Below, in pieces: positions 14,427 through 18,741 of a stretch of 51,479 nucleotides of DNA (position 1 is its first letter; each line of letters opens with the position of its first letter). The notes under the pieces were generated by a model. It made no database searches and had not been told where the DNA came from. It saw only the letters and a program-made list of their open reading frames with translations. The position numbers were made by a program, and so were the translations under genes. The DNA comes from a virus (lineage: Duplodnaviria; Heunggongvirae; Uroviricota; Caudoviricetes): positions 1-51,479 of IMG/VR virus record IMGVR_UViG_3300045988_007046. One strand, 5' to 3'.

Positions 14427-14432
14427 ATTTTG

Positions 14433-14478
14433 AGAGGGCTATTTAGCCCCTCCCTTAAAGAGTTCTTACGAGTATTCT
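14433..14478 (+). promoter_or_regulatory. paired hairpins in a tRNA spacer (possible processing or termination signal)
   Basis: GGGCT-ATTT-AGCCC hairpin followed by CCCTTAAAGA...TCTTTAAGGG inverted repeat enclosing GTTCTTACGAG. Confidence 0.4.
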
Positions 14479-14487
14479 TTAAGGGAG

Positions 14488-14561
14488 CAGAAGACCAAAT
14501 ACAGCAAGAATGTATGAAATTTCAAGCCAATTTAATTTTGAAAATTTAAAACTTGGTCTGG
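14488..14561 (+). ncRNA. structured spacer element E3 (CAGAAGACC...GGTCTGG family)
   Basis: 5' CAGAAGACCAAA pairs with 3' ACTTGGTCTGG; internal ACAGCAA. Confidence 0.35.
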
Positions 14562-14574
14562 CTCAACAAATTTA

Positions 14575-14706
14575 CAGAAGACCGTTTACAGCAAAACTTA
14601 AACAATCTATTTCTCCGGTAAAGAAAAGGCGAAGGTTCGATTCCTTCACTCGGCAGATGTCGAGTTGGTGTAATGGTAGCACTTAAGATGATAAACAACG
14701 GTCTGG
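14575..14706 (+). ncRNA. structured element E4: CAGAAGACC...GGTCTGG closing helix enclosing a tRNA-like module (Y-RNA/YrlA-like candidate)
   Basis: Closing helix AGACCGTT (14579-14586) with AACGGTCT; inside: perfect T-arm GAAGG-TTCGATT-CCTTC (14631-14647), 7-bp hairpin ACTCGGC-AGAT-GTCGAGT (14648-14665), D-arm-like GTGT-AATGGTA-GCAC (14668-14682). Confidence 0.4.
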
Positions 14707-14707
14707 T

Positions 14708-14851
14708 AATTATCTTTGTAGATAAGTTATTAAGCTTACCTGTGAGTATGCGACCACAAAGGGTGAAAGGGTAAATTCTAGATTTAAACCCAAAAAGGCA
14801 CATCGCTACAGACCTTAAGCAAGTCTGGGTAGCTTATCTACAAAGATAATT
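14708..14851 (+). repeat. 19-bp perfect inverted repeat enclosing a ~106-nt segment
   Basis: AATTATCTTTGTAGATAAG (14708-14726) is the exact reverse complement of CTTATCTACAAAGATAATT (14833-14851); interior holds a CAGAC...GTCTG hairpin. Confidence 0.6.
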
Positions 14852-14855
14852 TAAT

Positions 14856-14931
14856 GGAAGTGTAGCAGAATGGTGATGCGGCAGACTTTTAATCTGACAG
14901 GCGATGGGTTCGAATCCCTCCACTTCTACCA
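14856..14931 (+). tRNA. tRNA-Lys (anticodon TTT)
   Basis: Acceptor GGAAGTG/CACTTCT with G1-U72, anticodon loop CTTTTAA, T-region ATGGG-TTCGAAT-CCCTC (only 3 clean T-stem pairs), CCA encoded. Confidence 0.6.
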
Positions 14932-14936
14932 AAAAT

Positions 14937-15014: not shown

Positions 15015-15090
15015 GCTGGTATAGTTAAGAAGGTTATAACACTCCCCTGATAAGGGAACATCGGTGGTTCGATTCCACCTACCAGTACCA
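15015..15090 (+). tRNA. tRNA-Ile (anticodon GAT)
   Basis: Acceptor GCTGGTA/TACCAGT, anticodon loop CTGATAA, T-arm GGTGG-TTCGATT-CCACC, CCA encoded; starts 1 nt after the preceding tRNA. Confidence 0.7.
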
Positions 15091-15097
15091 ATTTCAA

Positions 15098-15136
15098 TAA
15101 AGTTGTTGACATTGAGATGTGACTACTTTATAGTAA
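15098..15136 (+). promoter_or_regulatory. sigma70-like promoter candidate inside the tRNA array
   Basis: AATAAAGTTGTTGACA with TTGACA at 15106-15111, exact 17-nt spacer, TATAGT at 15129-15134. Confidence 0.55.
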
Positions 15137-15294
15137 CCTTAGTTTTCGTTGCGTAGCGTCTATTTTGCAAATTTAAAATAAATGCAAACGACAATGTTTT
15201 TCTGGCAGTAGCTTGATAGGCTAAACACCAGTGAGGTCTTCCAATCCCTCATCAAAGAATTTGGCGTACTCGCCCACGGTATGATTAATAAGGT

Positions 15295-15336
15295 GGGCAT
15301 CTTTAAGGGCTTTCTAAGAGAGTCTTTAAAGATAAT
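15295..15336 (+). promoter_or_regulatory. spacer hairpin (ATCTTTAA...TTAAAGAT inverted repeat)
   Basis: 8-bp inverted repeat enclosing GGGCTTTCTAAGAGAGTC; related to other spacer hairpins carrying TTCTTA/CTAAGA motifs. Confidence 0.35.
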
Positions 15337-15338
15337 TA

Positions 15339-15420
15339 CGGGGCGTATCTCAGCGGTCTTCTAAACCGCCGTTAACCGAGTAAGTGGAGTATGCGGGTTC
15401 GAGTCCTGCCGCCTCGACCA
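15339..15420 (+). ncRNA. atypical tRNA-like element (possible aberrant tRNA-Arg TCT or pseudo-tRNA)
   Basis: Good acceptor CGGGGCG/CGCCTCG, T-arm GCGGG-TTCGAGT-CCTGC and CCA, but the only anticodon-like hairpin GCGGT-CTTCTAA-ACCGC lies 7 nt after the acceptor (no room for a D-arm) and is followed by a 23-nt extra region. Confidence 0.3.
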
Positions 15421-15900: not shown

Positions 15901-15925
15901 CAAAGACCTATTTAGGTCTTTTTAG
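15901..15925 (+). terminator. terminator-like hairpin inside the tRNA array
   Basis: AAAGACC-TATTT-AGGTCTTT followed by TTTTA. Confidence 0.4.
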
Positions 15926-16003
15926 AGGGCTTCTAAGGTTATTAGTCGCTTGTTGTGGAACCTTGTTGCTCAGGTTCTTAGAAGTTCTCTAAAAAGATTT
16001 AAT

Positions 16004-16758: not shown

Positions 16759-17001
16759 ATGCAAACATTAACAGTAGTTGAACATGAAAACTGTGAGAAT
16801 ATTGAGTTTGTCAGGGTCATTGGTGTTGAACACCACATTTTCTTAAAAGTAGGGTACTTATGTGACCCCGCTAGAGTAGAAAGATTTATACGTGATTGTT
16901 TTGGTGGTAGACAGCTAAAGAGTGTTATTTTTGAGACAGTTTTACCAGAAGGTTTAGAAACGAATAATAACATTTATCTCCTTACAAGGATTAGACGATG
17001 A
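16759..17001 (+). CDS. hypothetical protein embedded in the tRNA array
   Basis: 80-aa ORF starting 18 nt after tRNA-Arg; 4-nt overlap with the next ORF. Confidence 0.4.
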   Translation: MQTLTVVEHENCENIEFVRVIGVEHHIFLKVGYLCDPARVERFIRDCFGGRQLKSVIFETVLPEGLETNNNIYLLTRIRR

Positions 17002-17555
17002 GATATTTAAAATATGCTTCATGGATTTTCCTAGCTTTGCTAGAACCATTAGCAGCAACCTTAGCAGTTATCTTAGCACCTTTCGTAGTTCCATTTTACA
17101 GTGAGAAGAAAGGCCACTTACCTTTCGGATTTAGATGGATGGAGACATATGACAACCCAATTGATGGTGACGAAGGTCATATCGAACGATGGGCTAAGAT
17201 TAGAAAGATTGGTAAGCTGGGTGTCTACATGCAGAGAGTCGGATGGCTCTGGAGAAACAAAGCTTATAACTTCTCTTACCATGTATTAGGAAGAGATGTA
17301 AAAGATGTTACTAAGTGGAAAGGTAATATCAACGTAAGTTCTGACCCTGAAGATAATCAGACAGGTTATCTCCTAATGTGGAACAGTAATGCTTGGGGAT
17401 TATTCGCTTTTATCCCATCAATTAAAGTCTTTGGTAAACAGTTTTACTGGAGAATTTATATTGGATGGAAACTAAAAAGTGTTGTCCCAGAAGAAAGAGC
17501 ATTCTCAAGGGAAAGAGTTATGTTGGCATTCTTTATTCATCCACTGAGAAAGTAA
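16998..17555 (+). CDS. hypothetical membrane protein embedded in the tRNA array
   Basis: 185 aa; N-terminal hydrophobic segment WIFLALLEPLAATLAVILAPFVV; Trp-rich. Confidence 0.5.
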   Translation: MRYLKYASWIFLALLEPLAATLAVILAPFVVPFYSEKKGHLPFGFRWMETYDNPIDGDEGHIERWAKIRKIGKLGVYMQRVGWLWRNKAYNFSYHVLGRDVKDVTKWKGNINVSSDPEDNQTGYLLMWNSNAWGLFAFIPSIKVFGKQFYWRIYIGWKLKSVVPEERAFSRERVMLAFFIHPLRK

Positions 17556-17563
17556 AGATTTAA

Positions 17564-17801: not shown

Positions 17802-17802
17802 C

Positions 17803-17830
17803 TTCTAAGGGTTCTTACGAGAGTCCTTAA
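17803..17830 (+). promoter_or_regulatory. spacer hairpin carrying the GTTCTTACGAG motif
   Basis: CTAAGG-GTTCTTACGAGAGT-CCTTAA; same loop motif as the hairpin at 14445-14478. Confidence 0.4.
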
Positions 17831-17832
17831 AT

Positions 17833-17913: not shown

Positions 17914-17990
17914 TAGTCCAAGTAGCTTATATGGTTAAAGCGCGTGTCTGAAAAACATGAGAAGAGGGTTCAAATCCCACTGGACTACCA
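17914..17990 (+). tRNA. tRNA-Phe (anticodon GAA)
   Basis: Exact acceptor TAGTCCA/TGGACTA, anticodon arm CGTGT-CTGAAAA-ACATG, T-loop TTCAAAT; 3' CCA not cleanly encoded. Confidence 0.6.
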
Positions 17991-18006
17991 ATTTCAAAGG
18001 TGCTTA

Positions 18007-18741
18007 ATGAAAGAGATGACAGAACAAGGTAAGGAGATTTTTAATCTCTTAAAAACCGGTAAAGGGTTTTCTAACCCACTTATTACTGGTGCAGCAGTTC
18101 TCGGTGGAACCGTAGCTGCCTCTACATCACTTGTAAGCTCTATTAGTTCTGTAACAGACCCTACAATGCAGGAGAAACTTGTTGCTGCTGGACTTACAAC
18201 AGTCCTTCTAAACAGCTTTACAACAAGCCTTACAAGCACTACAGCAACTACTAAGACCCTGACAGACTACGGTCAAAAGTCTATTGATGAGTTTTCATCA
18301 CGTATGCAGGTAGCAAAGGGATATTCCAATGTTATGAGTGCAGCAGGAGAACAAGTTGGTTGTACACCGTTCAGTGGTATTATGGGTGTTGCTACAGAAT
18401 ATGGTCAAAAAGCTATTGATACAATTAACAGTACACTAGAGAGTGTTAACGATGTATTAAGTGACTTACAAGACGCTATTGATGAGGGTCTTGATACTAT
18501 TTCTGATTTAGCTAATCAGGCTGTTAGTAAGATTAATGAAGGTATTTCAAAGATTACAGCTTATGCAGATGAAGTTGTGCAGATGATTGAAGAAGAAGCT
18601 GCCCTTATTGCAGAGTACCTTAAAACGAATATCAATGGGTTCTTAGCAGGTATCTTACCAGACTGGTTTGACGATGCCTGTAAAACTGGTGTAATTGACA
18701 CTATTGCAACACCAGAAATGAAGAACGCATTACAGAAATAA
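18007..18741 (+). CDS. hypothetical Ser/Thr-rich protein embedded in the tRNA array
   Basis: ORF track gives 17944-18741 but that start overlaps tRNA-Phe; first ATG clear of the tRNA is 18007 (MKEMTEQGKE), preceded by AAGGTG; hydrophobic/Ser-Thr-rich N-half, acidic helical C-half. Confidence 0.5.
   Translation: MKEMTEQGKEIFNLLKTGKGFSNPLITGAAVLGGTVAASTSLVSSISSVTDPTMQEKLVAAGLTTVLLNSFTTSLTSTTATTKTLTDYGQKSIDEFSSRMQVAKGYSNVMSAAGEQVGCTPFSGIMGVATEYGQKAIDTINSTLESVNDVLSDLQDAIDEGLDTISDLANQAVSKINEGISKITAYADEVVQMIEEEAALIAEYLKTNINGFLAGILPDWFDDACKTGVIDTIATPEMKNALQK

Follow-up and report, generated by a model that had tools for sequence, protein, structure and literature searches.

The 51,479-nucleotide virus genome IMGVR_UViG_3300045988_007046 (positions 1 to 51,479 of that IMG/VR record, hereafter the window) carries, directly upstream of a tRNA-Lys gene, a 144-nt element (14708-14851) that is a conserved, non-coding plus-strand RNA present as a single copy at a fixed position. 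In its best explanation, to which we give about an even chance, the element is a fifth and lineage-specific stem-closed Y-like RNA, standing last in an array after four others designated Y1 to Y4, and would be a partner of a Ro-like protein encoded upstream. The five RNAs of this array are interleaved with tRNA genes 0.3-1.3 kb downstream of the Ro60-fold gene. Ro60 and Y RNAs are known from animals, some bacteria, mycobacteriophages and one Thermus phage. The window represents a Felix O1-like myovirus (Ounavirinae, Felixounavirus) with 99.8% identity to phage vB_EcoM_ASO1A across 8 kb, and the element of Felix O1 itself, the classic Salmonella typing phage whose relatives are widely used in biocontrol and therapy, is 100% identical to the window's copy. 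Y-RNA-like stem-closed small RNAs of phages are already known as a kind, and what is new here is the presence of Y-like RNAs and of this hairpin in Felix O1-like phages, where a literature search found neither described and where the Felix O1 genome paper lists tRNAs only, without the feature.

The element is bounded by two 19-bp arms, AATTATCTTTGTAGATAAG at 14708-14726 and its partner at 14833-14851, which are exact mutual reverse complements, as the initial annotation had stated, and which enclose 106 nt. This is the longest perfect inverted repeat of the window with a loop of at most 200 nt, the runners-up having 13 and 12 bp, and its arms grow to 22 nt if one mismatch is accepted. That such a repeat is far beyond chance was borne out by 200 first-order Markov random sequences, in which the longest arm averaged 11.7 and never exceeded 15. 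The arm sequence has just these two sites in the window, with 0.01 matches expected when up to three mismatches are allowed. The element lies inside a 429-nt gap (14427-14855) between tRNA-Asp and tRNA-Lys(UUU), in the first sub-cluster of 25 plus-strand tRNA genes, and tRNA-Lys starts at 14856, a 4-nt step from the end of the 3' arm. Existing records leave this gap unannotated or fill it with a 129-nt tRNA-Thr or hypothetical proteins, and in the database records inspected no RNA is annotated at the element.

Fold prediction, one of the checks that had been proposed for the repeat, gave a minimum free energy of -48.3 kcal/mol for the RNA of 14700-14856 (z = -4.9 relative to shuffled sequences), with the arms extended through G.U pairs into a closing helix of 23-24 bp (Table 1). 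Three hairpins fill the interior. The 5' inner hairpin carries a UGAGU..CGA island that is recognisable also in the second type of the element described below (type B), which has a different hairpin in this place. The middle hairpin has a loop, UUCUAGA (14776-14782), that is invariant across all versions, on a stem in which GGG/CCC of type A is exchanged for AGC/GCU in type B. The 3' inner hairpin is the CAGAC...GTCTG hairpin that had been noticed within the 106-nt interior; it shows a compensatory change from G-C to A-U and, as discussed below, is a small copy of a signature shared by the neighbouring RNAs. A terminator scan placed no intrinsic terminator at the element; UAAUGG follows its AT-rich stem, and AAUUAAU-type spacers like the one behind it also part other tRNAs in the cluster.

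Evolutionary evidence for function as RNA comes from 16-19 distinct versions of the element gathered from Felixounavirus, Suspvirus and Mooglevirus genomes and from viral contigs. They are of two types, type A, that of the window, which is found in 190 phage records (125 of the 190 being at least 99% identical), and type B, which is found in a minority of Felixounavirus and in Suspvirus and Mooglevirus. The arms lengthen into a 23-24 bp helix in both types, and identity between the types is 50-52% in the interior and 68-84% in the arms. In 16 distinct sequences from the three genera there is no unpaired cell among the 537 of the consensus structure, so that the 23 pairs of the helix are 100% paired, and six pairs have changed on both sides, four of these in the terminal helix and the other two in separate inner hairpins. 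With the partners slid by 1-3 columns as a control, 26-49% of the cells pair and 0-1 pairs show a change on both sides. Within type B a formal count adds two further compensatory pairs in the longer middle stem, where a third, U-A to G-C, was recognised by eye only; helix column 5 of this type is often a C.U or U.U mismatch. Hence the highly structured small RNA, one of three readings offered by the initial annotation, has held up, because compensatory and G.U changes have preserved the helix and two of the inner hairpins in all three genera.

The strand on which this RNA works can be read from the same alignment. A U.G pair is invariant at two helix positions and A-U alternates with G.U at three others, which means that the structure works only as plus-strand RNA. 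A covariance model of the element scores 157.7 bits on the plus strand and 50.6 on the minus strand, the minimum free energy is -48.3 versus -44.8 kcal/mol, and the plus strand is that of all 25 tRNAs. These observations bear on the possibility that the repeat is instead a palindrome acting at the level of DNA, as a cruciform or a protein site for replication, recombination or packaging. A perfect 19-bp pair could indeed be extruded as a cruciform, compensatory changes would preserve the symmetry of the DNA as well, and the invariant TCTAGA in the loop of the middle hairpin is itself palindromic. However, the U.G and A-U/G.U usage at five helix positions corresponds to A.C on the other strand and to mismatches in duplex DNA, the asymmetric inner hairpins covary as plus-strand RNA, the element lies within a tRNA transcription unit and it is dispensable in phage SP116. 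The DNA palindrome is already disfavoured by these results and we regard it as very unlikely.

Close variants of type A differ by indels of 1 and 2 nt at about 14760-14768 and 14792-14800, and the element is non-coding because such indels shift the reading frames. A small protein, as implied by the "hypothetical protein" annotated here in several GenBank records, might be sought in the open reading frames (ORFs) that overlap the element, at 14673-14774 (plus, 33 aa), 14546-14803 (minus, 85 aa) and 14834-14932 (minus, 32 aa). In addition to the frame shifts, the 85-aa ORF lies across the tRNA-like Y4 in antisense orientation, no reading frame is common to types A and B and most records annotate nothing here, so that the chance of an encoded protein is close to negligible. 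Nor does the element fall into a characterised RNA family, since Rfam scans of 6.5 kb, and then of 781 nt with lax filters, returned no family for it or for Y1-Y4 even at E <= 10, which leaves self-cleaving ribozymes, riboswitches and transfer-messenger RNA (tmRNA) unsupported for all five. A match to a junction pattern (locus L017) lay on an unrelated contig, within GC-rich coding sequence, and was discarded as chance.

A perfect 19-bp terminal repeat around about 106 nt of short non-coding interior is also what would be expected of a miniature inverted-repeat transposable element (MITE) or other mobile insertion, with the arms as its terminal inverted repeats, and this was another of the initial readings. 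It is the one that failed. The element occupies 193 places in 190 phage records, one per genome and always between Y4 and tRNA-Lys, its arms occur nowhere else in the window, and a search of E. coli found zero copies in 5,426 genomes and zero in 72,556 plasmids. The flanks ...GGTCTGGT / TAATGGAAG... (CTGGT / TAATG) have no direct repeat and hence no target-site duplication. The comparison with relatives that had been suggested as a test of mobility was carried out on 252 related records, 246 of which span the region, and revealed no precise empty site. The end points of the two deletions inspected, in phages SP116 and ESCO45, are unrelated to the repeat. In SP116 (L011 880-900) the T arms of Y4 and of tRNA-Lys have recombined, and what lay between them is gone, namely half of Y4, the whole element and the greater part of tRNA-Lys. 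In ESCO45 (L010 780-1010) one missing stretch reaches from tRNA-Asp into Y4, most of which is lost, and another from the 3' half of tRNA-Lys up to and including tRNA-Ile, and the complete element survives between them without either neighbour. Moreover, the arms stay paired through compensatory and G.U changes, which indicates selection on RNA pairing and not on a sequence bound by a transposase. On the other side stands the comparison of the window with Seyj1-1, in which flanks of 99-100% identity surround an interior of 52% identity, showing that the interior has been exchanged en bloc between types with the arms as the boundaries. The miniature transposon is thus rejected, the mobile reading as a whole being largely refuted and highly improbable, and the interior is nevertheless a swappable cassette.

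The connection with Ro60 is provided by the gene that precedes the tRNA cluster, whose product contains the Pfam families DUF2828 and DUF7788 and is assigned to PHROG 850, "RNA-binding protein". An AlphaFold model of this protein, built from 47 homologs (predicted local distance difference test 89.2, predicted template modelling score 0.88), was compared to the PDB, and the 12 best matches, all over the full length, were all Ro60 (E 3e-8 to 2e-6, template modelling score up to 0.66), including Xenopus Ro60, Deinococcus Rsr and the Ro60 of Thermus phage phiLo. The protein accordingly has a Ro60 fold as judged from the predicted structure. Searches of PDB chains with the protein sequence and with its profile gave no match, so that Ro60 emerged from the fold comparison only, and NCBIfam has no model for the protein. 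As DUF2828/DUF7788 is not Pfam TROVE, its standing as a Ro60 ortholog carries this caveat. Bacterial YrlA RNAs are encoded on the strand of a Ro60 gene no more than 4 kb away (PMC4201824), and the element starts 1,110 nt past the stop codon of the DUF2828/DUF7788 gene, likewise on its strand. The 2014 survey of YrlA RNAs was limited to TROVE-annotated genomes (PMC4201824), and proteins of the DUF2828 type would therefore have been excluded from it. Two stem-bulge-stem Y-like RNAs coded beside the Ro60 gene of Thermus phage phiLo are bound by that protein, which also engages the host PNPase (PMC12135203). Literature on DUF2828, or on Felix O1 in combination with Y RNA, was searched without a relevant result. 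Our search returned more than 2,500 relatives of the DUF2828/DUF7788 protein, many of them in large tRNA-rich phages, and these include members from the KVP40-like Vibrio phage phi-pp2 and from a Yersinia phage.

Between the Ro60-fold gene and the element lie the four RNAs Y1-Y4, which share the terminal helix NN[AGA]AGACCRN...NYGGUCU[G]NN, with WUNCAGCAA after its 5' strand. The core of this signature, AGACC-N2-7-AGCAA, occurs nine times on the plus strand against 0.88 expected (10-fold), and five of the nine are in the first sub-cluster, the fifth copy there being the 3' hairpin of the element. Three further matches (22193, 22412 and 23034) fall within tightly packed ORFs and one (2559) is without a GGUCU partner, and these were set aside as incidental. 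Y1-Y3 have no tRNA-like domain. Y4, with the terminal helix UUAC[AGA]AGACCGUU / AACGGUCU[G]GUAA, which overlaps the 5' arm of the repeat by 2 nt, contains a circularly permuted one, in which a 7-bp acceptor stem is closed by a 4-nt loop. This closed stem covaries fully between genera (ACUCGGC/GUCGAGU, ACACG/CGUGU, CCCUUC/GAAGGG), and the same circularly permuted tRNA-like architecture defines the bacterial YrlA RNAs (PMC4201824). Rfam detects within Y4 only a partial tRNA, and its YrlA family (RF02553) matches neither Y1-Y4 at E <= 10 nor the distant tRNA-like homologs at the gathering threshold. The 129-nt "tRNA-Thr-GGT" that tRNAscan-SE reports in ASO1B (L001 700-828; window ~14526-14654) and in REP5-7 is an artefact of the anticodon-like, T-arm and acceptor parts of Y4. 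The sequence GGCGAAGG of Y4 (14628-14635) matches the bacterial GNCGAAG Ro motif and was taken as coincidence because relatives read GGAGAAGG or GAGAGAAGG. A six-nucleotide complementarity exists between UAGAUU of the element's middle-hairpin loop (14779-14784) and AAUCUA in the Y4 linker (14603-14608), the latter being kept in Felixounavirus and Suspvirus and not in Mooglevirus; a match of this length could be chance.

RNAs of the Y4 kind are not confined to the Felix O1 group. In distant phages the Y4 model finds the same architecture, always on the strand of the gene and near genes for Ro-like proteins of 38-47% identity, and several of the matches begin no more than about 25 nt from that gene's stop codon; some weaker matches to model R2, which overlap ordinary or tandem tRNAs, were left out of the count. 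The distant set keeps a signature, (A)AAG-[variable helix]-UUNCAGCAA...[helix]-CUG, while the helix covaries. An alignment of 13 matches shows changes on both sides in 28 of 33 pairs, with 95% of the cells pairing versus 38-45% when slid, figures that are favoured by the alignment having been fitted to the model. The Ro-like protein family is thus linked to tRNA-like Y RNAs across distant phages. One distant locus (L073, 5368-5568) has a Ro-linked RNA with its own near-perfect terminal helix of 21-22 bp around about 157 nt, which identifies long terminal helices as a feature of this RNA class. At another (L057, 340-451), the tRNA-like RNA has beside it, flanked by two tRNAs, a different stem-closed RNA with three hairpins and a length of about 112 nt.

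How an element of this kind might be made and used can be outlined as follows. Two sigma-70-like promoters between the Ro-like gene and the first tRNA are likely, as matches to the consensus, to be the start of a transcript containing the tRNAs, Y1-Y4 and the element, so that the cluster would be transcribed by host RNA polymerase from about 13.6-13.7 kb. The 3' limit of the RNA would be set by the RNase P cut at the 5' end of tRNA-Lys (14856), and release of the RNA would probably also involve RNase III and/or RNase E, with the long helix and the AU-rich spacer as their targets. Its ends, locked in the helix, would be shielded from exonucleases, and the signature copy in the 3' inner hairpin may be the docking site for the phage Ro-like protein, which, by analogy, this hairpin probably recruits. 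The RNA could then serve as a Y-RNA-like regulator or as a scaffold of a Ro particle, in the manner of the Ro60/Y RNA/PNPase complexes of bacteria and phiLo. In shape the element, with 144 nt and a covarying helix of 23-24 bp, resembles Y RNAs, which have 80-150 nt and a long end stem.

Several observations weigh against the assignment of the element as a Y-like RNA. A tRNA-like domain is missing from it, as is the GNCGAA(N0-1)G / CGAA motif by which bacterial Y RNAs bind Ro (the vertebrate motif is GGUCCGA), to which UGCGAC in type A and GCCGAU in type B come nearest. Its copy of the signature is short (19 nt), and the use of this copy as a protein site is conjectural. No Rfam family, YrlA included, recognises it even at E <= 10, and its covariance model (R1) has zero matches in 75 distant loci that encode a Ro-like protein, hence outside the Felix O1 group the element does not keep company with that protein. 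Phage SP116 is without the element, which is therefore dispensable for plaque formation. Finally, the base of its helix (AUCUUU...AAAGAU with a AAUUUAAU-type spacer) recurs in three more pre-tRNA hairpins, and this recurrence points to a role in cis in the processing of pre-tRNA.

The last of these points is the basis of the main rival explanation, in which the element is purely a cis-acting leader or processing hairpin, a site guiding RNase III or RNase E that parts the upstream RNAs from tRNA-Lys, with the interior as a by-product. Directly before four tRNAs that follow long gaps, those for Lys (14856), Arg (15339), Leu (16004) and Gln (17564), stands AAAGAU(N0-2)UUAAU, in each case as the 3' side at the foot of a hairpin that has (A)UCUUU on its 5' side. 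One of the four, at 15912-16002, combines a stem of 26 bp with an interior of about 39 nt and ends 1 nt before tRNA-Leu(UAG); its stem is maintained in Suspvirus at 75% identity and its fold favours the plus strand (-37.6 versus -26.8 kcal/mol). Its 5' arm is overlapped by a preceding hairpin, AAAGACC...GGUCUUUUU, and the two are possibly alternative structures. Shorter hairpins with AAAGAU 3' bases and spacers like that of the element stand at 15299-15333 and 17530-17558 before tRNA-Arg and tRNA-Gln, so that two long and two short hairpins make up a family of leader hairpins before four of the post-gap tRNAs. The E. coli RNase III needs about two helical turns, at least 20 bp, of largely uninterrupted double-stranded RNA. 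Since the duplex of the element has 19 perfect base pairs and 23-24 in total with G.U, which reaches this length, cleavage of the long helix by RNase III, also among the initial suggestions, is plausible from the predicted pairing. That the interior falls to 50-52% identity between types, with 68-84% in the arms, likewise suits a processing site. However, the interior is constrained, as UUCUAGA is invariant, compensatory changes maintain the middle and 3' hairpins, and identity reaches 99% or more in 125 of the 190 type A records; it carries the signature common to Y1-Y4, and a bare processing site has no need for a structured insert of 106 nt. We consider a role in cis alone to be unlikely. 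It is, in any case, compatible with a Y-like RNA because cleavage by RNase III could be the step that matures it.

Comparison with known systems sets out what is shared and what is not. With the Y RNAs, such as YrlA and YrlB of Salmonella and Mycobacterium, Yrn1 of Deinococcus and Yrl1 and Yrl2 of phiLo, which are non-coding RNAs of 100-150 nt, the element shares ends joined in a long stem, a structured interior, a position about 1.1 kb from a Ro60-fold gene on the same strand and membership in a set of several paralogous RNAs at one locus, and its neighbour Y4 has the T arm, loop-closed acceptor stem and D arm in a terminal stem that are typical of YrlA (PMC4201824, PMC12135203). Apart from the missing tRNA-like domain, GNCGAA/CGAA motif and Rfam YrlA match, it differs in that its helix is an uninterrupted 19-bp duplex instead of a bulged stem, in that the candidate protein site is another signature (AGACC..CAGCAA..GGUCUG), in that the partner protein is DUF2828/DUF7788, which Pfam does not class as TROVE, and in that the RNAs are embedded in a tRNA operon. 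Compared to MITEs, the element has terminal inverted repeats flanking a short non-coding interior, but it is single-copy and fixed, without target-site duplication, empty site or host copies, and its arms evolve under a base-pairing constraint.

RNase III stalks are familiar from the stems flanking 16S and 23S rRNA, the sites in T7 early mRNA and the site in the T4 tRNA precursor. Like these, the element has a long and nearly perfect duplex formed by the flanks of an RNA segment in a polycistronic stable-RNA transcript, here directly upstream of a tRNA. Unlike in these, cleavage of the duplex is putative, the enclosed RNA is small and has conserved hairpins of its own, and the base of the duplex belongs to a family of leader hairpins of 8 to 26 bp, only two of which are long enough for RNase III. 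The tRNA gene cluster of T4 encodes two stable small RNAs, species 1 and 2 (rnaD/rnaC), which are likewise non-tRNA stable RNAs among phage tRNA genes and presumably matured from the same precursor; no relationship in sequence or through Rfam was detected between them and the element, and to our knowledge they have never been linked to a Ro-like protein.

Of greater interest than the element itself is the wider system, a Ro-fold protein of the DUF2828 type together with signature RNAs in tRNA operons. This system extends the Ro60/Y RNA theme to a large protein family (>2,500 relatives) that is without a Ro label in domain databases, and ties it to the tRNA operons of phages. Possibly, if doubtfully, felixophages and many tRNA-rich phages carry an unrecognised ribonucleoprotein system, composed of a divergent Ro60-fold protein (DUF2828/DUF7788) and a Y-like RNA array in the tRNA operon that includes a tRNA mimic, and in which the element would be a fast-evolving cassette effector with types A and B as alternative specificities, for example as decoys or scaffolds directed against host RNases (PNPase, RNase III) or tRNA-targeting defence nucleases. 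The element offers a tractable handle on the role that such a particle may have in infection, which might lie in the quality control of RNA, in protecting the phage tRNAs or in interfering with the RNases or defences of the host. It is also a warning to annotators, as tRNAscan-SE and ORF callers mislabel RNAs of this kind.

Table 1. Coordinates in the window of the Ro60-fold gene, the promoters, the Y-like RNAs and the parts of the element
Feature	Start	End	Strand	Description
Ro60-fold protein gene	12183	13598	+	471 aa; helical-repeat ring and vWA domain (predicted); Pfam DUF2828 and DUF7788
Predicted promoter, sigma-70-like	13617	13645	+	Between Ro-like gene and first tRNA; consensus match only
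Predicted promoter, sigma-70-like	13708	13737	+	Between Ro-like gene and first tRNA; consensus match only
Y1	13931	14006	+	Stem-closed RNA with signature helix, between tRNA-Glu and tRNA-Met; 31.5 bits
Y2	14097	14160	+	Stem-closed RNA with signature helix, between tRNA-Met and tRNA-Asn; 45 bits against model R2
Y3	14485	14564	+	Stem-closed RNA; bulged signature helix GAGC[AGA]AGACCAA / UUGGUCU[G]GCUC
Y4	14572	14709	+	Stem-closed RNA with circularly permuted tRNA-like domain
Y4, anticodon-like hairpin	14610	14626	+	
Y4, T arm	14631	14647	+	
Y4, acceptor stem	14648	14665	+	Loop-closed, 7 bp
Y4, D arm	14668	14682	+	
Element, terminal helix, 5' strand	14708	14731	+	19 nt perfect (14708-14726), then 5 pairs including G.U
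Element, 5' inner hairpin	14736	14766	+	Type A (window) only; from the minimum-free-energy fold, without covariation support
Element, middle hairpin	14769	14791	+	GGGUAAA-UUCUAGA-UUUAAACCC
Element, 3' inner hairpin	14809	14827	+	CAGAC-CUUAAGCAA-GUCUG; mini copy of the AGACC..(C)AGCAA..GGUCUG signature of neighbouring stem RNAs
Element, terminal helix, 3' strand	14828	14851	+	3' end CAAAGAUAAUU, a motif common to three other pre-tRNA leader hairpins
UAAU spacer	14852	14855	+	Between element and tRNA-Lys

The tRNA cluster around the array has further structured or unannotated parts. At the start of the gap that contains the element, a double hairpin (14436-14487) is nearly invariant across three genera, and its second hairpin has arms of 17 nt and the loop region GUUCUUACGAG, a loop sequence that recurs in a 31-nt leader of tRNA-His (17802-17832). 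A tRNA missed by ARAGORN was found by Rfam at 15339-15417 (31.7 bits), where relatives annotate tRNA-Arg(UCU). Weak sub-threshold Rfam matches to a permuted tmRNA (29.2 bits, 15032-15216) and to tmRNA (16 bits, 15148-15337) together span (15032-15337) tRNA-Ile, a strong predicted promoter at 15106-15134 and the region upstream of tRNA-Arg. Farther downstream, the tRNA cluster is interrupted by ORFs of 185 and 265 aa (16998-17555 and 17944-18741), and HNH endonucleases are annotated in the tRNA region of relatives.

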